A DNA stretch of 64,000 bases. Source: Planctomycetota bacterium (GTDB taxonomy: Bacteria > Planctomycetota > UBA1135 > UBA2386). The notes beneath the pieces are model-generated. The model saw only the letters and a list, made by a program, of their open reading frames with translations. It had not been told where the DNA came from and ran no database searches. Shown here piece after piece: positions 4,756-14,208 of this stretch (position 1 is the stretch's first letter; each line of letters starts with the position of its first letter). The translations under genes and the position numbers were made by a program. The stretch spans positions 768,001 to 832,000 of the forward strand of contig JBKAGP010000001.1 in assembly GCA_046290465.1 (NCBI GenBank). The letters are read 5' to 3'.

Positions 4756-4780
4756 TTGCAGCGCGCGCCGCCCCTAGGCT
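4752..4780 (+). promoter_or_regulatory. Putative sigma70 promoter of tRNA-Leu
   Basis: TTGATT (4752-4757), 17 nt spacer, TAGGCT (4775-4780), 13 nt before the tRNA. Confidence 0.55.
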
Positions 4781-4793
4781 CCGCGCACCACGA

Positions 4794-4878
4794 GCCGGAG
4801 TGGCGGAATCGGCAGACGCACAGCTTTCAAAAAGCTGCGAGGCAACTCGTGCGGGTTCAAGTCCCGCCTCCGGCACCA
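4794..4878 (+). tRNA. tRNA-Leu (CAA)
   Basis: Acceptor GCCGGAG/CTCCGGC, anticodon stem CAGCT/AGCTG with loop TTCAAAA, long variable arm CGAG-GCAA-CTCG, T arm GCGGG-TTCAAGT-CCCGC, encoded ACCA end. Confidence 0.96.
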
Positions 4879-4890
4879 TTCGTTGCGCCC

Positions 4891-4957
4891 GGTCCGAGAG
4901 ATTGGCGGTCCGAGAGATTGGCGATCCAAGAATGGGTTCCGGGACGAATCTCACGGA
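4891..4957. repeat. Short tandem repeat (GGTCCGAGAGATTGGC x2 plus a degenerate copy)
   Basis: Exact 16-mers at 4891-4906 and 4907-4922; related cluster at 45276-45351. Confidence 0.75.
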
Positions 4958-5112
4958 TCGAGCCCCCTCCCCTCCCGCGACCCGACCAGACCGTGGCAGG
5001 CGGCCGTCGAGAAGACCCGCCCCCCGAACTGGACCTGCGAACCGGTGCGGTTGACAGGATGCGTTCGGGGCGGGACAAGGGTTGGGCCTGCCCTGCCACC
5101 ATGCGGCATCCC

Positions 5113-7473
5113 ATGAACCGAATCCTGTTCGCCGTCGGCGCCACCGTTCTCGGCGGCTTGCTCGTTGCCCAGTCTCCCGGCCCGCAGCTGCAGCTGCGCT
5201 TCGAGGTGTTCGATCCGCTCGAGGCGACGCCGGCGGTGCCGGCAAGCCTGCAGGCGAACGCGACCGCGCAGCTCGGGATCGTGCAGTTCGCCGGCACCCC
5301 GACGCAGGCGGATCGCGAACGGCTGGCCGAGGCCGGCCTGCGGCCGCTGTGGTACCTGCCCGACGACGCCTACGTCGTGTGCGGGCCGGCCGACGCGCGC
5401 CGCGGTCTGCGCAACCGCGCGGGCGTTCGCTGGGTCGGGCCGTTCCATCCGGCCTACAAGCTCGCGGCCGAGCTGCGGCCGGACCTGGTCGGCGACCGCA
5501 CGCAGGGCGAACGCTACGTCGTCGTGATGGCCGATCCGAAGCACGACGAGAACGGGCTGGTGCAGCGCATCGAACGGCTCGGGGGCAGCATCTGGCGCTA
5601 CGCCGCCGGCAACCTGCTGCTCGAGGTCGACCTGACGCCGCCGCAGTTGCAGCAGGTGCTCGCCGACGACGCGGTGCTGTGGGTCGAGCGTGCGCAGCCG
5701 ATCGAGCACGACATGGACAACGCCCGCATCCAGGGCGGCGCCGACTACCTCGAGGCGCAGGGCGGCACCGCCGGTGGCTTCACCGGCAAGGGCGTGCGCG
5801 GCCACATCATGGAGGGCATCTTCCCCAACCACCCCGAGTATGCAGCCAACAGCTGGCGGGTGGTGCCGGCGTCGGTGTTCAGCGGCCAGGCGACCAACCA
5901 CGGCCAGTCGACCTTCGGGATCGTGTTCGCCAACGGCGTCGACCCGATGGCGCGCGGCATGTGCCCGGACGGCCAGGGCTTCTTCACCGACTACAGCTGG
6001 CTGATCAGCACGCCGGCGATGCAGACCGGCAACAACAGCCGCTACGGCGTCGTGCGCGAGATCACCGACCCGGCGCAGCCGTGGCAGTGCATGTTCCAGA
6101 CGGCGTCGTGGGGCTACCCGCGCACGCTGTTCTACGACGCGCGTTCGGCGGAGATGGACTGGATCATCGCCGAGTTCGACCTGCCGATCTTCCAGAGCCA
6201 GTCGAACTCCGGCAACCAGATGTCGCGGCCGCAGGCGTGGGCGAAGAACATCGTCTCGGGCGGCGCGATCTTCCACAACGACACCGCGACGCCGGCCGAC
6301 GACAGCGCCAGCGGCACCAGCACCGGGCCCGCGACCGACGGGCGCATCAAGCCGGACCTGTGCGGCTACTACGACAGCATCTACACGACCTCGGGAGCGA
6401 GCGGCTACACGTCGGGATTCGGTGGCACCTCGGGCGCGACGCCGATGATCGCAGGACACGCGGCGATGATGCTCGAGCTGTTCACCGACGGCGCGTTCGG
6501 CCTCGAGCTGCAGCCCGGAGACGACTGGACCAACCGGTTCGCCCGCCGGCCGCACTTCAGCACCACCAAGGCGCTGCTGATCAACACCGCGCGCCAGTAT
6601 CCGCACGCGCAGGTCGGCGGCCGCTACCGCCAGGGCTGGGGCTTCCCGTCGCTCGAGGACCTGTGGGACCTGCGCGAGCAGATGCTCGTGCTGGACGAAC
6701 AGGACGTGCTGCAGCAGGGGCAGCAGCGCGTCTACACGGTGTTCGTCAAGCCGGGCACGCCGCAGCTGCGCGCGACGATGACGTTCGCCGATCCGGCCGG
6801 CAACCCGGCGGCGGTGCTGCACCGCGTCAACGACCTCGACCTCGAGGTGACGGCGCCCGACGGCACCGTCTACCACGGCAACGTCGGTCTGGTCAGCGAC
6901 GTGTTCTCGTCGCCGGGCGGCGCCCCCAACGACCACGACACGGTCGAGAACTGCTTCGTGCAGAACCCGATGCAGGGCCTGTGGACCGTGCGCGTGTCGG
7001 CCCCCGAGATCGTCGTCGACCAGCACGTCGAGACGGCGGCCACCGACGCGGACTTCGCGCTGGTGGTGAGCGGCATCGGTGCCGGCCGCGACGCGACGGG
7101 CGCGGTGCTCGACGTGGTCTCCAGCGCGCCGGGCAGCATGGTCACGACGCTGAGCAACCTGCCCGCCGGCGTCGCCGAGGGCTACGTGCTCTACACGCTG
7201 GCGACCGCGCGCGATCGCGGCATGGGCAACTTCCTCGGCCTCGAGGTCGACGACCTGTCGCTGCTGAGCGTCACCACGCCGGCGAGCGCCGGCCACCCGC
7301 TGCACTTCACCGGCAACGCCGGCGCCACGCAGTTCCCCAACGCGCCGTTCGTGTGGCCGGCGCTGGTGCCGACGCTGCTGCAGGGCCAGCAGCTCGACGC
7401 GGTCGCGGTGTTCGTCGACGCCAACGGCGCCTTCTTCGCGGCGTCGAACGTCGCACGCGTGACGGTGCAGTAG
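5113..7473 (+). CDS. Secreted S8 (subtilisin-like) serine peptidase with propeptide, jelly-roll domain and C-terminal domain
   Basis: Signal peptide; NHGQSTFG (His), QSQSNSG (oxyanion Asn), GPATDGRIKPD, GGTSGATP (Ser), QGWG, VNDLDLEV. Confidence 0.9.
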   Translation: MNRILFAVGATVLGGLLVAQSPGPQLQLRFEVFDPLEATPAVPASLQANATAQLGIVQFAGTPTQADRERLAEAGLRPLWYLPDDAYVVCGPADARRGLRNRAGVRWVGPFHPAYKLAAELRPDLVGDRTQGERYVVVMADPKHDENGLVQRIERLGGSIWRYAAGNLLLEVDLTPPQLQQVLADDAVLWVERAQPIEHDMDNARIQGGADYLEAQGGTAGGFTGKGVRGHIMEGIFPNHPEYAANSWRVVPASVFSGQATNHGQSTFGIVFANGVDPMARGMCPDGQGFFTDYSWLISTPAMQTGNNSRYGVVREITDPAQPWQCMFQTASWGYPRTLFYDARSAEMDWIIAEFDLPIFQSQSNSGNQMSRPQAWAKNIVSGGAIFHNDTATPADDSASGTSTGPATDGRIKPDLCGYYDSIYTTSGASGYTSGFGGTSGATPMIAGHAAMMLELFTDGAFGLELQPGDDWTNRFARRPHFSTTKALLINTARQYPHAQVGGRYRQGWGFPSLEDLWDLREQMLVLDEQDVLQQGQQRVYTVFVKPGTPQLRATMTFADPAGNPAAVLHRVNDLDLEVTAPDGTVYHGNVGLVSDVFSSPGGAPNDHDTVENCFVQNPMQGLWTVRVSAPEIVVDQHVETAATDADFALVVSGIGAGRDATGAVLDVVSSAPGSMVTTLSNLPAGVAEGYVLYTLATARDRGMGNFLGLEVDDLSLLSVTTPASAGHPLHFTGNAGATQFPNAPFVWPALVPTLLQGQQLDAVAVFVDANGAFFAASNVARVTVQ

Positions 7474-7506
7474 CGGTGCTGGCCGAGATCGCCACGAAAC
7501 GCGTGC

Positions 7507-7535
7507 TTGCACCGCGTGGCGAGATCGGCTAAGCA
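7507..7535 (+). promoter_or_regulatory. Possible promoter upstream of the riboswitch
   Basis: TTGCAC (7507-7512), 17 nt spacer, TAAGCA (7530-7535); the -10 match is weak. Confidence 0.3.
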
Positions 7536-7544
7536 ACTCCGCGT

Positions 7545-7692
7545 CCCCAGCGGGGAAGTCCGGTGCGATGCCGGCGCTGTCCCGCAGCTGTGACCGAGGA
7601 CGAACGTGACCACGAACCACTGGCTCGCCGCGAACGGCGGGTCGGGAAGGGGGTCACCAGTAGGACGATCCGGAAGCCAGAAGACCTGCTGA
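7545..7692 (+). promoter_or_regulatory. Cobalamin (B12) riboswitch
   Basis: GGGAAGTCCGGTGCGATGCCGGCGCTGTCCCGCAGCTGTGA core, CCACTGG...GGGAAGG, B12 box AGCCAGAAGACCTGC; 5' of a coupled 4-gene operon. Confidence 0.93.
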
Positions 7693-7756
7693 GGACCAGC
7701 GCCGAGAGGGCGCTGCCGCAATCGCTTCGCGCGGCGCGAGTGACGCCGCTAGATCC

Positions 7757-8791
7757 ATGAACCGTTCCTCGATCGAGGTCCGTACCCAGCGTGGGTTCGG
7801 CACCTTCCTGGCCACCGCCACCGGCGCCGTGGCCCTTTGCGCGGCACTGCCCGCGCAGTTCTTCGCCGACACCGTCGTCGCCCACCAGTCCAACGCCCAG
7901 GCCGGCGGCGGCATCTTCCAGCCCGGCAACGCGCTCGGTGCGCCCGCGGGCGGCAGCGACGTGCACAGCCTCGGCATCCAGGGCTCGCTGACGCTCGGCT
8001 TCAGCAACGCGATCACCAACGGCCCCGGCGCCGACCTGATCGTGCACGAGAACCCGTTCCGTTCGACCAGCAACCTTGGGAACACGTTCGCGGAGGTCTG
8101 CTTCGTCGAGGTCAGCACCGATGGCGTGCACTTCGCGCGCTTCCCGTCGCGCTACTACGGCCCGATGCAGAGCCCGGGACCGTTCTCGTTCGTGCCGGTC
8201 GGCAGCTACTCGGGCCTCGCCGGCGTCACGCCGTCGTTCGTCAACGACCCGACGGTCGATCCGCGCGACCTGGTCGAGGCCGGCGGCGACGCATTCGACC
8301 TCAACGACCTTGCCAGCGACCCGTTGGTCGTGCAGGGACTGGTCGTGCTCGACCTGATCCACCAGGTCCGGCTGGTCGACGTGCTCGACGGCATCGACGT
8401 CGATTCGACCGGCACGCCGATCCAGGACCCCGGCAGCGGCAGCGCCGACATCGACGCGGTCACCGCGATCCACCAGATCCAGACGCTGACGCTCGACAAC
8501 CCGACCGTCGACCTGCAGATCCAGAACGACGGCACGATGACGCTGCGCATCGAGGACCCCAACGGTCGCGGCGATCTCGACCCGCTGAGCCTGCGCGCGG
8601 CGCTGTTCGGCCTGCCGGTCGATGCCGGCGGCCTGCTGGCGACGTTCACGCTGCAGAGCGTCGACGCGACCGGCTACACGCTGGTGCAGCCGGTGCCGCT
8701 GCCGCAGTCGATGCGGTTCTCGCTGGCGTTTTCGATCCGTGACCTCGCCGGCCACCACAGCGGTTCGACCAGGACGCGGCCGACGCCCTGA
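7757..8791 (+). CDS. Secreted/cell-surface protein, probable B12-binding (BtuH-like) domain plus C-terminal Ig-like domain
   Basis: First gene after the riboswitch; signal peptide; motifs SLGxxGSLTLGF, NGPGADLIVHENPF, VEVSTDG, GGDAFDL, DIDAV resemble riboswitch-linked cell-surface proteins. Confidence 0.6.
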   Translation: MNRSSIEVRTQRGFGTFLATATGAVALCAALPAQFFADTVVAHQSNAQAGGGIFQPGNALGAPAGGSDVHSLGIQGSLTLGFSNAITNGPGADLIVHENPFRSTSNLGNTFAEVCFVEVSTDGVHFARFPSRYYGPMQSPGPFSFVPVGSYSGLAGVTPSFVNDPTVDPRDLVEAGGDAFDLNDLASDPLVVQGLVVLDLIHQVRLVDVLDGIDVDSTGTPIQDPGSGSADIDAVTAIHQIQTLTLDNPTVDLQIQNDGTMTLRIEDPNGRGDLDPLSLRAALFGLPVDAGGLLATFTLQSVDATGYTLVQPVPLPQSMRFSLAFSIRDLAGHHSGSTRTRPTP

Positions 8792-9561
8792 TGGCTCTGC
8801 CTCGCGATCCGTGCAACCCGGAGCGTCGCCGCCGCGACCCGGCCGAACGTCCACCGCCGCCGCCTTTGGGCGGGCGGCTGGTGATGTCGTGGAGCGGCGG
8901 CAAGGACAGCGCGATGGCGCTGCACGACCTGCAGCGCGACCACGACTACGAAGTGGTCGGGCTGATGACCACGCTCAGCGCCGAACACGACCGCGTCAGC
9001 CACCACGGCGTGCGCGAGTCGCTGCTCGACGACCAGGCGCGCGCCATCGGCCTGCCGCTGCACAAGCTGCGCTGGCGCCAGCCCGACGGCGTCGACGAGG
9101 CGGCGGCGATGGCGTCGTTCGAGCTTGCGATGGAGCAACTGCTGCAGGAGCTGCGTGCCGACGGCGTGCACCACGTCGGCTTCGGCGACATCTTCCTCGA
9201 GCGCACGCGGCGCTACCGCGAAGAACGGTTGGCCGACGTCGGCATGCGCCCGGTGTTCCCGCTGTGGTCGTGCGACACCGAAGCGCTGCTGCACCGCTTC
9301 ACCGACGACGGCTACGAGGCCGTCGTCACCTGTGCCGAGCCGGTCGCGGCGGCGCTCAACGGCGTCGACCTGTCGAGCCGGCTGCTCGCCGATGGATGGC
9401 CCGCCGGCGTCGATCCGTGCGGCGAGCACGGCGAGTTCCATTCGTTCGTGCACCAGGGCCCCGTGTTCCGACGCCCGGTGCCGTTCGTGCGCGGCACGCG
9501 CGTGGTGCGCGACGGCCGCCACTACACCGACCTGATCCCCATTCCCCACCTGACTCCATGA
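8791..9561 (+). CDS. DUF71/COG2102 (Dph6-like) PP-loop ATP pyrophosphatase, copy 1
   Basis: SWSGGKDS, FGDIFLE, PVFPLW, DPCGEHGEFHSFV; TGATG coupling to the upstream gene. Confidence 0.9.
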   Translation: MALPRDPCNPERRRRDPAERPPPPPLGGRLVMSWSGGKDSAMALHDLQRDHDYEVVGLMTTLSAEHDRVSHHGVRESLLDDQARAIGLPLHKLRWRQPDGVDEAAAMASFELAMEQLLQELRADGVHHVGFGDIFLERTRRYREERLADVGMRPVFPLWSCDTEALLHRFTDDGYEAVVTCAEPVAAALNGVDLSSRLLADGWPAGVDPCGEHGEFHSFVHQGPVFRRPVPFVRGTRVVRDGRHYTDLIPIPHLTP

Positions 9562-10103
9562 CCCCCACCCTTCCCGATCGACGCGCCCGGCTGGTCGCCA
9601 CCGCGCTGGTCTGCGCCGCCGCCTGGTCGCGGCTGGTGCCGCACTGGCCCAACTTCACCGCCGTGCCGGCGATGGCACTGTTCGGCGCGGTCGCGCTCGG
9701 CCGTCGCTTGGAGGCGTTCGCGCTGCCGCTGCTCGCGATGCTGGTCAGCGACCTCGCGCTGGCGGCGTTCGTCTACGGCACCGACGCGTTCGTGATGATG
9801 CCCGCCGTCTATGCCGCGATCGCGGCAACGGTCTGGATCGGCTGCCTCGCCGGGCGCCGGCCATGGTCGCTCTTGCTGGCCGGCGTCGGCGCCACCGCGA
9901 CGTTCTTCGTGACCGTCAACTGCTACGTCTGGCTGGTCTCGGATCTCTACCCGGCGACCGCCGCCGGCCTGCTCGCGTGCTACCTCGCAGCGCTGCCCTA
10001 CGCCGGCAACATGCTGCTCGGAACGCTCGTCTACGGCGGCGCCCTGCTGGCCATCTGGCAGCTGGCCCGCTCGCCTTCCTCCGCCCAGCCGAACGCCACG
10101 TGA
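9558..10103 (+). CDS. DUF6580-type small multi-TM membrane protein (ECF S-component-like putative vitamin transporter)
   Basis: RLVPHWPNFTAVPAMALFGA, PLLAMLVSD, FFVTVN..VW...YP..AGLLACY.AALP; about 5-6 TM segments; ATGA overlap. Confidence 0.75.
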   Translation: MTPTLPDRRARLVATALVCAAAWSRLVPHWPNFTAVPAMALFGAVALGRRLEAFALPLLAMLVSDLALAAFVYGTDAFVMMPAVYAAIAATVWIGCLAGRRPWSLLLAGVGATATFFVTVNCYVWLVSDLYPATAAGLLACYLAALPYAGNMLLGTLVYGGALLAIWQLARSPSSAQPNAT

Positions 10104-10759
10104 ACGACCCGATCTGGGCCGCTTCGTGGAGCGGTGGCAAGGACTCGTGCCTGGCGCTGCAGCTGGCGATCGAGTCGGGAGGCGAACCGTACGCGCTGCT
10201 GACGGTGCTCGACGAACACGGCGAGCGCTCGCGCTCGCACGGTCTCCGGCCCGAGGTCCTGCACGCCCAGGCCCGCGCCTGTGGGCTGCCGATGCGCGAG
10301 GCGTGGGCGTCGTGGCAGACCTACGAGGAGGCGTTCGTCGCGGCGCTGCGGGCGTTGCGCGACGAGGGCGTGACCGACTGCGTGTTCGGCGACATCGACC
10401 TCGAGGACCACCGCATCTGGGAGCAGCGCGTCTGCGAACGGGCCGGGCTGCGCGCGTCGCTGCCGCTGTGGCAGCGCGACCGCCGCGAGGTGCTCGACGA
10501 ACACTGGCGCCGCGGCTTCCGCTGCCACGTCGTCGCCGTCGATGCCCGCAAGCTCGACCGCGACGTGCTCGGCGCCGAGCTGACGCCGGAGCTTGCCAGC
10601 CGCTTCGAACGCGACGGCGTCGACGCCTGCGGCGAGAACGGCGAGTTCCACACCGTCGCCGTCGACGGCCCGCTGTTCCAGCGACCGCTCGAGCTCGCGT
10701 TCGGCGAGGTCGTCGAACGCAGCGGCTACCTGGCGATCGACGCGCGACCGCGCGGCTAG
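10100..10759 (+). CDS. DUF71/COG2102 (Dph6-like) PP-loop ATP pyrophosphatase, copy 2
   Basis: GTG start overlapping the previous stop (GTGA); SWSGGKDS, RSRSHG, VFGDIDLEDH, DACGENGEFHT. Confidence 0.9.
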   Translation: MNDPIWAASWSGGKDSCLALQLAIESGGEPYALLTVLDEHGERSRSHGLRPEVLHAQARACGLPMREAWASWQTYEEAFVAALRALRDEGVTDCVFGDIDLEDHRIWEQRVCERAGLRASLPLWQRDRREVLDEHWRRGFRCHVVAVDARKLDRDVLGAELTPELASRFERDGVDACGENGEFHTVAVDGPLFQRPLELAFGEVVERSGYLAIDARPRG

Positions 10760-10760
10760 C

Positions 10761-12023
10761 TCAGCGCTGCGGCGACAGCAGGCGCGCCACCGTCTGCTCG
10801 CGCAGCAGCTGGGCCTTCGCCTGTTCGCCGAGCAGGTCGAGCACCTCGGCCAGCACCGCGCACACGGTCGGCGTCGGGCCGAGCGCGTCGGCAGCCACGC
10901 GGGCGGCGCGCTCGGCGCGGGCGTGTTCGCCGGCGCGCGCCAGCTCGCGCGCGACCAGCAGCAGCGCGCCCTGCATCGGGCAGCTCGCCAGCAGTTCGCG
11001 CGGCTCGACCGCGCCCGGGTGTTCGCCGAGCAGCTCGGCGATGCGGTCCAGTCCGATCGGCGAACGGGTCGCTCCGTAGACCTGCACCGCCTTGCGGTGC
11101 TCGCCGAGCGCTCGGTGCACGTCGCCGAGCAGCAGGCTGCCGGACGGCCCGTCGGGGTCGGCCTTTTGCAGCCGCTTGCCGAGCCTGCGGGCGCGGTCGT
11201 GGTCGCCGGCAGCGAGCGCGCGTTCGCCGGCGGCGACCAGCATGTCGACGAACCGCTGGCGCTCGCCGGTCGCGCTGGCCGGCGGCGCGTGCTTGACGAC
11301 CTTGTCCTGCCATTCGACCGCTTCGTCGAGCGCGCCTTCGGCCTCACACAGCTCGCGCAGCACGCGCAGCATCGCGACGTCGCCCCCGAACCGCTGCACC
11401 GCGGCCTCCGCTTCGCGGCGCAGCGTGGCGGGCAGCACCTGGCCCTGGCGGCGTAGCGCCTCGAGGCGCAGCTGCAGCAGCGTGCGCTGCAGTTCCTTGG
11501 GCAGGCCCGGCTCGACGACGCGCGTCAGCCAGCCCATCGCCTCGTCGACGTGTCCGTCGGCCAGGGCCAGCCGCGCCAGCTTGAGGTTGGCGTCCTGGAC
11601 CACGTGCGGGTAGCGCTCCGGCAGCGGTCCGCGGTAGCGAGCGACCTTGCGGAAGCGTTCGCGGCTGGCGCGTCGATCGAGGCCGACCAGCGCGGCGGTC
11701 GCGTGCAGGTGCCGGCCGAGCGTCGCCTCGGCGCGCATGTCGCGCACGCGCTGCTTGAGCAGCCAGAACAGCACCATGCCGAGCACCGCGAACGTGACCA
11801 GCAGCAGCAGGATCCGCCCGACGGTGGTCTCGAGCATCGGCTCGAGCACCCGCACGAACAGGTCGACCAGCTTGAGCACGACGTCGAGCGCCGGCCCGAA
11901 CAGCGCCAACAGCAGCACGAACGGCAGCGCGTAGACCAGCACGCGCAGCCACGGGTTCTTCGGCAGCAGCGCCTTGATCGGCGCCAGCAGGCCCTTGCGC
12001 ATCACGTCGCCGACCCTACCCAT
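10761..12023 (-). CDS. Membrane-anchored TPR protein
   Basis: Two N-terminal hydrophobic helices followed by TPR-like repeats (e.g. SLLLGDVHRALGEHRKAVQVY); overlaps the upstream stop. Confidence 0.7.
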   Translation of the reverse strand: MGRVGDVMRKGLLAPIKALLPKNPWLRVLVYALPFVLLLALFGPALDVVLKLVDLFVRVLEPMLETTVGRILLLLVTFAVLGMVLFWLLKQRVRDMRAEATLGRHLHATAALVGLDRRASRERFRKVARYRGPLPERYPHVVQDANLKLARLALADGHVDEAMGWLTRVVEPGLPKELQRTLLQLRLEALRRQGQVLPATLRREAEAAVQRFGGDVAMLRVLRELCEAEGALDEAVEWQDKVVKHAPPASATGERQRFVDMLVAAGERALAAGDHDRARRLGKRLQKADPDGPSGSLLLGDVHRALGEHRKAVQVYGATRSPIGLDRIAELLGEHPGAVEPRELLASCPMQGALLLVARELARAGEHARAERAARVAADALGPTPTVCAVLAEVLDLLGEQAKAQLLREQTVARLLSPQR

Positions 12024-14208
12024 CGACGCCTCCCGCACCGTGCAGCGCGCGCTCGAGGTGCAGCCGCAGGTTGTCGTCCTTCTCGCGTTTGAGCAGCGTC
12101 TTCAACGCGCGCGTCGCCGGCCGCGTCGCCAGTTCGCCGAGCGCGCGCGCGATCTGCACGCGGCGGTTGTTGTGGCGGCGCAGCAGGCCGGCGCTGACCT
12201 TCTCGAGCCAGCCCGAACGTTCGTAGGCGCCGAGCATCGCGTCGACCGCGTCGTCGCCGATGATCACCAGCAGTTCGCGCAGCCGGTCGTCGAACATGGT
12301 CGGCTCGGGGCCGAAGCCGTCGGTGATGTGGCCGGCCGCCGCGCCGCCGCCGCGCACCAGCACGCGCGCCAGCCGTTTGCAGGCGTCCTCGGAGGCCTCG
12401 GGGCTGGCGTAGGCCGCGAGCACGTGCTCGAGCACCCGTTCGCCGAGTTCTTCGAGCACGCGCATCGAGGTCGCTGCCAGGCGGTCGTCGGCGACCCCGG
12501 CGATCAGGCTGGTGGTCAGCTGGCGGCTGGCGCCGCGACGCAGCATCACCGCGATCAGCACCTCGGGATCCTCGGCGTCGGGCACCGCTGCCAGCAGCGC
12601 CTCGTCGCGGTAGAAGGTCGGCTCCAGCAGCAGCGACTCGACCAGGAAGTGGCCGCGCGGGATCGACGCCAGGAACGCCTGCAGCACGTCGCGCGCGGCG
12701 TTGTTGAGCCGGTGCAGGATCTCCATCGGCGGGAACCGTTCGAGCACCGACTGGAACGCCTCGACGTCGCCGAGGCCGAGGAAGTAGTCGATCAGGATCC
12801 GCCGGTGGTCCGGGCGCGTCGACGTGAACAGTTGCTGCACGTGCGGCAACGCCTCGCGGTCGAACCGCTGCACCACCTTGCCGACGATCGCCGCCGGCCC
12901 CTCGCCGACGCCCCAGATGCGCGCCTGGCCGAGCGCGTCGCTGGCGGCGAACAGCGCCGGCGCGATCTGCGGCCCCATCGCGTGCAGCGCGTCGATGGCC
13001 TGTTCCTGCACCCGGCCGCTGTTCTTCCACGCCGTGCGCAGCAGTTCGTGCACGGCCGCCTCGCCGACGGCGACCAGTTCGCCGGCGACGCTCTGGTCGC
13101 CGTCGACGAACCGCCGCACCAGCCGGCGCACGTGGGCTTCGTTGACGTCGATGCGGTCCATCGCCTCGGTCGCCGATTCGATCCCCGCGACCAGCGCGGG
13201 TTCGACCAGGTCGCCGGGCGCCGCGATGCCGCAGCGCGGGCACTGCACGACCTCGCGCAGAAGCGGCGCCTCGCAGGCGCGGCAGCGCCAGCGCGCCGGC
13301 TCGAGCAGGCCCTCGAACGTCGCCATCGGCAGCCGTTCGACGGTCTCGGCGGGCAGCTGCGCACTCGTCACCGCGAGCGCGCGTTCGGCCGTCGGTGCGG
13401 CGAGCCGCCGGGCGAGCTCGGCGGCGCCGTGTTCGTCGGCGTCGAGGCGTGCGCGCAGCAGCGGCAGCCGCTGCTGGCCCTCGTCGAGCGCCTGCGCCTC
13501 GCGCAGCGCGGCCCGCGCGGCCTTGGCGTCGCCGTCGCGCCACGCGCGCGTGCCGAGCTCGGCGAACGTGCGGGCGAGGTCCAGCTGGGCGCGCTGGCGT
13601 TCGCCGCTGTCGCGCAGCAGCAGGATGCGCTTGCGGCCGGCGCGGGCGGCGGCCCGGTGGTCGCCCTGCTGCAACCGCGCCCGATACAGGAAGTCCCAGC
13701 CCGGCCCGTGCTGCGGCATGCGCGCCATCGCCTGCTCGGCGACGTCGGCGGCCTCGCACGGCATGCCGGCCGCCAGCAGGCTCTGGGCCAGCAGCAGGTC
13801 GTTCTCGCCGCTGTCGACCGCGAACGCCTTCTGCAGGTAGAGGTGCTGCTGGTGCGCCTGCTCGGCCTGGCCGAGGTCGCCGAGCACCTTGCCGAGCATC
13901 AACCGCGCGAAGTGGTTCTCCGGGTCCTTCTCGAGCACGCGCCGCAGCCGCTTCTCGGCGCCGGCGAGGTCGCCCTGCAGCGCCTGCTCGACGCCGAGCA
14001 GGTAGTCGGCGAGCGCCTCGCGGGCGCGCGCATTGCGCACCAGCGCCGCCAGCCGCCACCAGACGAACACCACCGCGGCCACCAGCGCGACCGCCAGCAC
14101 CACCTCGAGCACGCCCGGCTCGCTGACGAACGCGACCAGCCGCTGCCAGAGCGTCGGCGCTTCGGCGACGGTCGCGGGTTCGTCCTGCAGGTCGGCGGCG
14201 GCAATCAT
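12016..14208 (-). CDS. LapB/YciM-like protein (TM + TPR + rubredoxin-like CxxC..CxxC) with long helical-repeat C-terminal extension
   Basis: N-terminal TM; YLLGVEQAL...DPENHFARLMLGKVLGDLGQAEQAHQQH matches the LapB first TPRs; WRCRAC...QCPRC; HEAT-like tail. Confidence 0.65.
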   Translation of the reverse strand: MIAAADLQDEPATVAEAPTLWQRLVAFVSEPGVLEVVLAVALVAAVVFVWWRLAALVRNARAREALADYLLGVEQALQGDLAGAEKRLRRVLEKDPENHFARLMLGKVLGDLGQAEQAHQQHLYLQKAFAVDSGENDLLLAQSLLAAGMPCEAADVAEQAMARMPQHGPGWDFLYRARLQQGDHRAAARAGRKRILLLRDSGERQRAQLDLARTFAELGTRAWRDGDAKAARAALREAQALDEGQQRLPLLRARLDADEHGAAELARRLAAPTAERALAVTSAQLPAETVERLPMATFEGLLEPARWRCRACEAPLLREVVQCPRCGIAAPGDLVEPALVAGIESATEAMDRIDVNEAHVRRLVRRFVDGDQSVAGELVAVGEAAVHELLRTAWKNSGRVQEQAIDALHAMGPQIAPALFAASDALGQARIWGVGEGPAAIVGKVVQRFDREALPHVQQLFTSTRPDHRRILIDYFLGLGDVEAFQSVLERFPPMEILHRLNNAARDVLQAFLASIPRGHFLVESLLLEPTFYRDEALLAAVPDAEDPEVLIAVMLRRGASRQLTTSLIAGVADDRLAATSMRVLEELGERVLEHVLAAYASPEASEDACKRLARVLVRGGGAAAGHITDGFGPEPTMFDDRLRELLVIIGDDAVDAMLGAYERSGWLEKVSAGLLRRHNNRRVQIARALGELATRPATRALKTLLKREKDDNLRLHLERALHGAGGVDG

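Follow-up and report, generated by a model that had tools for sequence, protein, structure and literature searches.

A window of 64,000 nucleotides from the genome of a Planctomycetota bacterium (G000 in our set of genomes) contains a cobalamin riboswitch followed by an operon of four genes, which we call g1 to g4; coordinates are positions in this window unless another sequence is named. The riboswitch aptamer (7531-7707, plus strand) matches the Rfam family RF00174 over the full model (positions 1-189) with 74.3 bits and an E-value of 1.9e-16, against a gathering score of 31.5, which bears out the riboswitch proposed in a preliminary description of the sequence. All four genes follow on the same strand, the first of them starting fifty bases after the aptamer. 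The g1 gene (7757-8791) encodes an exported protein of 344 amino acids that matches no Pfam family and has, by structural model, a BtuH-like domain; g2 (8791-9561) encodes a DUF71-B12 PP-loop ATP pyrophosphatase of what we term clade A (PF01902, 92.8 bits); g3 (9558-10103) encodes a DUF6580 membrane protein of 181 amino acids (PF20221, 142.7 bits, cut-off 27); and g4 (10100-10759, with a GTG start) encodes a second DUF71-B12 PP-loop ATP pyrophosphatase, of clade B (PF01902, 137.9 bits). Consecutive genes overlap by one base at g1/g2 (TGATG) and by four bases at both g2/g3 (ATGA) and g3/g4 (GTGA). The translational coupling and the DUF71, DUF6580, DUF71 assignments are thus as the preliminary description had given them, and it was also right that btuB, btuFCD and an energy-coupling factor (ECF) ATPase are absent from the four genes. 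The start of g2 is ambiguous, because in the 256-amino-acid reading the PP-loop (SGGKDS) is not reached until residue 34; the ATG at 8791 and the GTG at 8872 or ATG at 8875 are equally possible, and close relatives are annotated at either length, 256 or 231 amino acids. We read the locus as a riboswitch-repressed cobamide scavenging operon in a host without two of the genes for completing or rebuilding cobamides, a reading that, taken as a whole, could equally well prove right or wrong.

The model of g3 provides a possible explanation for how cobamide could cross the cytoplasmic membrane. Built on an alignment of 102 sequences, it has a predicted local distance difference test (pLDDT) score of 92.8. 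In a Foldseek search with the model, the leading matches are ECF S-components and BtuM, the latter with template modelling scores of 0.61-0.66. In VIA-align the best match is again BtuM (8ovv/8c7p; Z 13.9, root-mean-square deviation (RMSD) 3.2, 164-165 aligned of 175-179 residues), followed by 18 ECF S-component entries with Z from 12.5 to 9.3, after which the scores drop to 7.6; CbiM (5x3x_M) also matches, with Z 9.3. Four residues of the DUF6580 family are invariant (R25, N32, W125 and G137) and three are nearly so (H29, D65 and Y85), conservation having also been checked in a 25-sequence alignment. The host genome carries a single DUF6580 copy, g3 itself. One member of the family bears the NCBI name 'putative transport protein', and no paper in the literature searched mentions DUF6580.

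BtuM of Thiobacillus denitrificans (8OVV/8C7P; Rempel et al. 2018) is the known protein that g3 most resembles, as the two share a small six-helix S-component fold. The likeness extends to context: like BtuM hosts, which are reported to be without EcfT (PMC6072759), the host of g3 has no ECF module, and DUF6580, like BtuM, occurs with btuB-type receptors nearby and in B12-regulated surroundings. DUF6580, however, is PF20221, a Pfam family other than that of BtuM and with a far wider phyletic spread, and g3 has no sequence-level similarity to BtuM. Cys80, the invariant and essential residue of BtuM that ligates cobalt (PMC6072759), finds no conserved equivalent in DUF6580. By modelled fold and by context DUF6580 appears to be BtuM-like, yet not a BtuM. 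A second comparison is ECF-CbrT, a cobalamin transporter (PMC5997447). Like g3, CbrT is an S-component-type protein, and it is dedicated to cobalamin, but it requires the EcfT/EcfAA' module, and the host genome has no match to EcfT (PF02361; the search did not extend to ECF ATPases). CbrT is not among the Foldseek or VIA-align matches listed for g3. From the fold, the context and the genome inventory we infer that g3 may be a stand-alone, S-component-like carrier, and a candidate for transporting cobamides without an ECF module.

The first gene of the operon would supply the capture step. The AlphaFold model of g1 (pLDDT 91.3) consists of a signal sequence, a jelly-roll domain at about residues 30-240 and an immunoglobulin-like (Ig-like) domain at about residues 245-344. 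The best VIA-align match of the model is BtuG1 (8blw_B, residues 388-660; Z 13.1, RMSD 3.4, 167 aligned, 21% identity) and the second is BtuH2 (7biz_B, residues 317-593; Z 13.0, RMSD 3.0, 157 aligned, 17% identity), with unrelated proteins following at Z 10.9, 8.9 and 7.6. The globular domain of BtuH2 binds B12 through contacts that include Tyr510, Trp511, Trp577, His476, Asn399 and Gln333, and it was described as having no structural homologues (PMC8941943). Residues 30-240 of g1 are modelled with the same fold as BtuH2 (BT1956, 7BIZ) and the H-domain of BtuG1 (8BLW) of Bacteroides thetaiotaomicron, and the proteins are alike in being exported and in being encoded in a B12-regulated uptake locus. 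They differ in that identity over the aligned parts is 17-21%, with no match at the level of hidden Markov models (HMMs), and in domain order: in g1 the putative binding domain comes first and a single Ig-like domain after it, while in BtuH2 it is the PKD domains that are N-terminal. Furthermore, g1 is from Planctomycetota, and unlike BtuH2 and BtuG1 it has no BtuB or BtuG partner in its operon. We infer that g1 may bind cobamide through its BtuH-like domain.

Homologues of g1 number 404 at E<=0.001, and the following details concern the best 120 of them. Six bear NCBI names, all from Planctomycetota metagenome-assembled genomes (MAGs); identity to g1 is 49-65%, the three closest excepted; and a Pfam domain is absent from all of them. 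When 51 g1 homologues were scanned with Pfam at E<=1, nothing but weak Ig-like matches came up, in 4 members, and in NCBIfam g1 itself has a weak match to the LIC_13355 lipoprotein family (NF033170, 46.5 bits, cut-off 120). Structure neighbours of g1 in the Atlas are unannotated exported proteins from several phyla, and some of their clusters, including ones from Bacteroidota, carry DUF4430 or DUF4465. DUF4465 proteins bind B12 (10.1101/2025.08.21.671476), and we take these neighbours as a lead only.

On either side of g3 lie g2 and g4, which are 35% identical. Both copies keep the PP-loop sequence SWSGGKDS, and a second motif reads CGEHGEFHS in g2 and CGENGEFHT in g4. The preliminary description had pointed to this difference as a contrast between the two enzymes; the motifs are indeed as stated, but we reject the H/N difference as a marker of specificity, as the position is variable. 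Among 112 aligned DUF71 sequences it is N in 44, H in 13, Y in 12 and R in 9, with other residues elsewhere, and the motif His is kept in 108 and the preceding Cys in 89. We speculate that this Cys and His, which flank the motif, contact cobalt.

What really sets g2 and g4 apart is that they belong to two deep clades. In a quick maximum-likelihood tree (LG+G4, with the Shimodaira-Hasegawa-like approximate likelihood-ratio test (SH-aLRT) as sole support and no bootstraps), clade A (SH-aLRT 100) holds g2, all 24 sampled g2 homologues and the upstream copies of L006 and G119, and also takes in 10 of the 12 DUF71 genes of the other single-copy DUF6580 loci. Clade B is the remainder of the tree, in which g4, the downstream copy of L006 and the protein P0281 form one group (SH-aLRT 99); the downstream DUF71 copies of G119 and G107 lie near g4. 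HMM scores agree with this assignment: the clade-A HMM gives g2 350 bits and g4 165, and the clade-B HMM gives g2 168 bits and g4 320. Pairs of one A and one B copy occur in four loci (G000, L006, G119 and G107). An A+A pair is found in G379, where Gln replaces the motif His in one copy.

A natural fusion joins the two clades within one polypeptide. P0283 (458 amino acids) has a clade-B half at its N-terminus (147 bits against the clade-B HMM, 91 against clade A) and a clade-A half at its C-terminus (263 against clade A, 189 against clade B). The recurring A+B pairs and this single B-A fusion lend indirect support to the idea, raised in the preliminary description, that g2 and g4 form a heterodimer. 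A complex prediction for g2 (33-row alignment) with g4 (36-row alignment), run without controls, returned a score of 0.00 where the mark is 0.32; it speaks neither for nor against binding. Clade-B relatives of g4 are also fused to a PduO-type corrinoid adenosyltransferase, a CobA/BtuR corrinoid adenosyltransferase or a CobC-like histidine phosphatase; further fusion partners are GNAT domains, a methyltransferase and Cys-rich domains.

As the preliminary description had stated, Dph6 amidates the diphthine of elongation factor 2 (EF-2), and bacterial DUF71 proteins have been proposed to act in B12 salvage; the paper behind this proposal defines the DUF71-B12 signature as ENGEF/YH, with His replacing Glu188 of Dph6 (PMC3541065). 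No assay of a DUF71-B12 enzyme is described in the titles, abstracts and passages that our literature search covered. With the subgroup of de Crecy-Lagard et al. (2012), g2 and g4 share the PP-loop and the E-x-G-E-F/Y-H signature, clustering with B12 uptake genes and a host without a CbiZ match. Unlike in the cases of 2012, two copies from two deep clades flank a DUF6580 putative carrier rather than accompanying BtuCDF. Dph6 itself (PF0828, 3RK1; yeast YLR143W) belongs to the same fold family, and the best PDB sequence matches for DUF71 are 3rjz/3rk0/3rk1 (E 3.6e-19), followed by 2d13. The chemistry that Dph6 and g2/g4 share is likely to consist of two steps, in which ATP is used to adenylate a carboxylate and the carboxylate is then amidated. 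In g2 and g4, however, the EGGE/DxE motif of Dph6 is replaced, the Dph6 substrate, EF-2 diphthine, is absent from bacteria, and both proteins fall short of the cut-off of the Dph6 equivalog family TIGR03679 (63.6 bits for g2 and 102.8 for g4, against 197.3).

The surroundings of DUF6580 genes in other bacteria provide a line of evidence that does not depend on this one operon. A synteny survey had been suggested in the preliminary description, and ours was seeded with an 11-sequence DUF6580 alignment; of 600 pattern matches, 425 were confirmed as relatives, and we retained the 80 best loci, which span many phyla and extend up to 6 kb to each side. All 80 were scanned for riboswitches with Rfam at gathering thresholds, and neighbours were annotated by crude open reading frame (ORF) calling seeded with phmmer hits, with one Pfam-scanned representative per cluster. 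A cobalamin riboswitch adjoins DUF6580 in 33 of the 80 loci: RF00174 lies upstream on the same strand in 25, and on the opposite strand, adjoining the DUF6580 start, in 8; one more locus has a weak, distant match. The eight opposite-strand loci (L009, L017, L028, L032, L033, L052, L061 and L080) are alphaproteobacterial and from Sphingomicrobium, and in them the aptamer drives a divergent TonB-dependent receptor gene, so that DUF6580 has no aptamer of its own. With two riboswitches per 6.6 Mb, a chance riboswitch neighbour within 6 kb would be expected in well under 1% of loci. The commonest neighbour scored is a TonB-dependent receptor (29/80 loci), followed by DUF71 (13/80), a DUF5074 protein (6/80), a BtuF-type binding protein (5/80), TonB (4/80) and CobS (3/80). 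DUF6580 is therefore strongly linked to cobalamin riboswitches and TonB-dependent receptors across phyla.

Two particular arrangements recur among these loci. In L040, L045, L064 and L066, two same-strand RF00174 aptamers stand about 1.1-1.3 kb apart upstream of DUF6580 with a TonB_C gene between them, and the TonB and receptor/DUF6580 genes there seem to be under separate switches. All five loci with a BtuF-type (Peripla_BP_2) protein (L008, L018, L021, L029 and L050) also hold a clade-A DUF71, a trio that is not present in our window.

The host genome, a single contig of 6.59 Mb that is 94% complete, shows what its owner could do with an imported corrinoid. It contains 8 B12-binding domains and one PduO-type adenosyltransferase, and the host therefore uses B12. 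It has no match to CbiB (PF03186), CobS (PF02654), CobA/BtuR (PF02572) or CbiZ (PF01955), and its only PF01902 copies are g2 and g4. Without the last amidation or attachment step (CbiB) and nucleotide-loop assembly (CobS), the host would need complete cobamides from outside. The cargo of the operon should likewise be a complete cobamide, because this genome cannot use cobalt for corrin, cobinamide or lower ligands. Four TonB-dependent barrels are encoded, none of them near either of the two RF00174 matches that the genome holds in total, the one in our operon included.

A sample of 401 Planctomycetota genomes, many of them incomplete and related to one another, so that the numbers are counts rather than tests, places this inventory in the phylum. 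DUF71 occurs in 87 genomes, with two full copies in 11 and these adjacent or within 3 kb in 4. DUF6580 occurs in 27, and DUF71 stands directly upstream of it on the same strand in 8. Genes for g1-like proteins are present in 35 genomes and lie next to DUF71 only in G000 and G119. CbiB was found in 45 genomes, of which just 4 also have DUF71; that is, 4 of the 87 DUF71-positive genomes have CbiB (83 do not) against 41 of the 314 DUF71-negative ones.

Taken together, the parts suggest the following course of events. When cobamide is scarce, the aptamer would be unliganded and the four coupled genes would be expressed. Exported g1 would capture cobamide with its BtuH-like domain, and g3, acting as a solitary carrier, would move the complete cobamide across the cytoplasmic membrane without an ECF module. 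We hold cobamide capture plus import to be highly probable, and both of these elements of the preliminary description have gained ground, the former from the match of the g1 fold to the B12-binding domains of BtuG1 and BtuH2, the latter from the S-component fold nearest to BtuM, the missing EcfT match and the link of DUF6580 to riboswitches and TonB-dependent receptors. In the cytoplasm, g2 and g4 would take over the corrinoid, as a pair or possibly as a heterodimer, and it is probable, if less so than uptake itself, that the imported corrinoid is what they act on. They may adenylate a free side-chain carboxylate with ATP and then amidate it, which would make deamidated or incompletely amidated cobamides usable before adenosylation.

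Side-chain amidation would be the most economical chemistry for g2 and g4, because PP-loop enzymes adenylate carboxylates and Dph6 amidates one. In general, the enzymes of this superfamily activate a carboxylate or carbonyl by adenylation and then transfer it to an amine. We propose amidation only tentatively and think it somewhat likelier to be wrong than right. Re-amidation becomes more attractive because the genome has no match to CbiB, CobS or CbiZ, and the two clades would then serve different side-chain positions, or one heterodimer would serve them. In a bolder version, a heterodimer of clade-A and clade-B DUF71 would work with DUF6580 as one unit for import and repair: the solitary S-component would admit cobamides, deamidated antivitamin forms among them, and the two enzymes, each with its own positional specificity, would spend ATP on re-amidating the corrin side chains, which would both save damaged cofactor and make uptake one-way. 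This version strikes us as unlikely.

Other functions for the DUF71 pair have to be weighed against amidation. DUF71-B12 proteins are strictly anticorrelated with bacterial CbiZ and adjoin cbiB in 18 of 102 cases (PMC3541065), and our own data contain the missing CbiZ match of the host, a DUF71 gene 2.3 kb from CbiB in G049 and the CobS gene near DUF6580 in 3 of the 80 loci. These would fit CbiZ-like amidohydrolases, the function put forward in 2012, which would open unsuitable cobamides such as pseudo-B12 at the nucleotide loop and yield adenosylcobyric acid, from which CbiB, CobU, CobS and CobT rebuild a cobamide. We reject such remodelling for this genome, since cleavage that feeds CbiB is useless where neither CbiB nor CobS is matched and the product could not be used, and the rarity of CbiB among DUF71-positive genomes, counted over many incomplete MAGs, points the same way. 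To our knowledge, moreover, PP-loop enzymes are ATP-dependent ligases or amidotransferases, not hydrolases, and we judge the CbiZ-like reaction to be improbable. A serious rival to amidation is metabolic trapping, in which DUF6580 would be equilibrative and an ATP-consuming modification of the corrinoid by DUF71, whether amidation or another reaction, would make import one-way and replace the ABC ATPase as the source of energy for uptake. The idea of trapping was raised in the BtuM paper (PMC6072759), and several observations agree with it: the g2/g3 overlap in a genome without an EcfT match, the 8 of 27 DUF6580-positive Planctomycetota in which DUF71 and DUF6580 share a strand and their matched parts are less than 150 bases apart, and the adenosyltransferase fusions that put DUF71 at the first cytoplasmic step. 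Yet in 67 of the 80 DUF6580 loci DUF71 is missing from the stretch of up to 6 kb on either side, which argues for a carrier independent of DUF71; in 79 of the 87 DUF71-positive genomes DUF71 stands apart from DUF6580; and no PP-loop enzyme is known to modify intact cobalamin. We consider trapping rather unlikely, and it may coincide with amidation.

The identity of the cargo and the division of labour between g2 and g4 leave room for two further alternatives. Cobalamin riboswitches also govern transporters of cobalt and of precursors (PMC3766115), and the S-component fold is common to CbiM and many vitamin carriers, so that DUF6580 might carry cobalt, cobinamide, a lower ligand or alpha-ribazole, or might merely anchor the enzymes to the membrane. 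To a cell without CbiB and CobS such precursors would be unusable, and both the closeness of g3 to BtuM among known structures and the frequent TonB-dependent receptor and occasional BtuF-type neighbours, the usual partners in corrinoid uptake, favour a cobamide; we give the alternative cargoes little credence. It is similarly doubtful that just one of the DUF71 copies is catalytic and the other degenerate, a regulatory subunit or a redundant duplicate. The lower PF01902 score of g2 and the Gln substitution in the A+A pair of G379 would be in keeping with this, but both copies in the window retain SWSGGKDS and C-G-E-x-G-E-F-H, and each comes from a clade of its own that is large and conserved, with 7460 proteins for g2 at E<=0.001 and 4609 representatives for g4.

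Several observations weigh against the preferred reading of a cobamide capture and import operon with corrinoid-amidating enzymes. A profile of 102 DUF6580 sequences returns none of the PDB sequences at E<=10, with the BtuM entries present in the library, and no counterpart of BtuM Cys80 is seen, as Cys is absent from the columns conserved in at least 90% of sequences in both the 25- and the 102-sequence alignment. For g1, a profile of 51 homologues finds no BtuH or BtuG chain among PDB sequences at E<=10, the sole match being one to PhnH at chance level (E 0.93), and the 51-sequence alignment shows no conservation of a lipobox cysteine such as the Bacteroides lipoproteins have. We accordingly rejected g1 as a BtuH-like lipoprotein. 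Intact cobalamin has no free carboxylate, and amidation would thus need a pool of damaged or incomplete cobamides. Elsewhere in the host genome, one FecCD + Peripla_BP_2 pair at 4.109 Mb, far from both riboswitches, could be BtuCF. The full g1-g2-g3-g4 set is found only in the three related genomes G000, L006 and G119, and in G119 a transposase gene separates g4 from the others; this gene, of the DDE type, lies at L088:6595-7926 on the minus strand, between DUF6580 and the clade-B DUF71. Finally, 46 of the 80 DUF6580 loci have no RF00174 match within 6 kb. Of these riboswitch-less loci, 22-24 are from Bacteroidales and show housekeeping synteny, which suggests that this DUF6580 subgroup is constitutively expressed or differently regulated. 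The Bacteroidales block (for example in L013, L020, L023, L049 and L071) has an amidohydrolase gene upstream on the opposite strand and mutL, rhomboid and Exo_endo_phos genes downstream.

All three protein types have precedents, in BtuM (2018), BtuH (2022) and the DUF71-B12 prediction (2012). What is new is the presence of all three parts in one operon, the assignment of the enzymes to clades A and B with the backing of a natural fusion, and an argument from genome inventory against a CbiZ-like model. BtuCDF has been predicted in just about half of B12-auxotrophic bacteria (PMC6072759), and DUF6580 is a widespread, unstudied candidate for filling part of this gap, one that the operon ties to a putative capture protein and two enzymes within one transcription unit. 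If the genomes that encode DUF71-B12 proteins mostly have no CbiB, these proteins cannot feed cobinamide salvage, and their reaction should be sought on complete or damaged cobamides; in this way the inventory sharpens the test of a twelve-year-old prediction. The A+B pairing and the P0283 fusion indicate which two proteins belong together. An import-and-repair unit, if true, would amount to an undescribed pathway of cofactor repair and an ATPase-free drive for vitamin import in B12 auxotrophs. As B12 exchange shapes microbial communities, the identity of uptake parts carries ecological weight.

The operon is bordered on its 3' side by a convergent gene for a tetratricopeptide repeat protein (10761-12038) and on its 5' side, upstream of the riboswitch, by a gene for a secreted subtilase (PF00082). 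Further upstream of the subtilase gene lies a tRNA gene at 4794-4875 (plus strand, 56.2 bits, 82 nucleotides, with a long variable arm); the mechanically listed ORF at 4756-7473 overruns it, so that translation of the peptidase must in fact begin at a later position. A scan of 7300-11100 gave no terminator-like and no promoter-like (sigma-70-like) site, and in a search for the expression platform the segment 7680-7775 folded no better than shuffled sequences (z -0.27). The second riboswitch of the host genome (G000:C1:2442356-2442487, equivalent to L086:557-688) scores 77.7 bits and is followed at L086:912-5411 by genes for a 434-amino-acid protein without a Pfam family, which has no similarity to g1 (E 0.46), and a 1055-amino-acid protein of CarboxypepD_reg-type repeats; this locus could represent a further envelope system under B12 control. 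Six sequencing runs other than the possible source sample contain at least half of the words sampled from 7500-10800 of the window; two of these carry the label marine metagenome, one is called aquaculture metagenome and three have coded organism names, which hints at a marine habitat.

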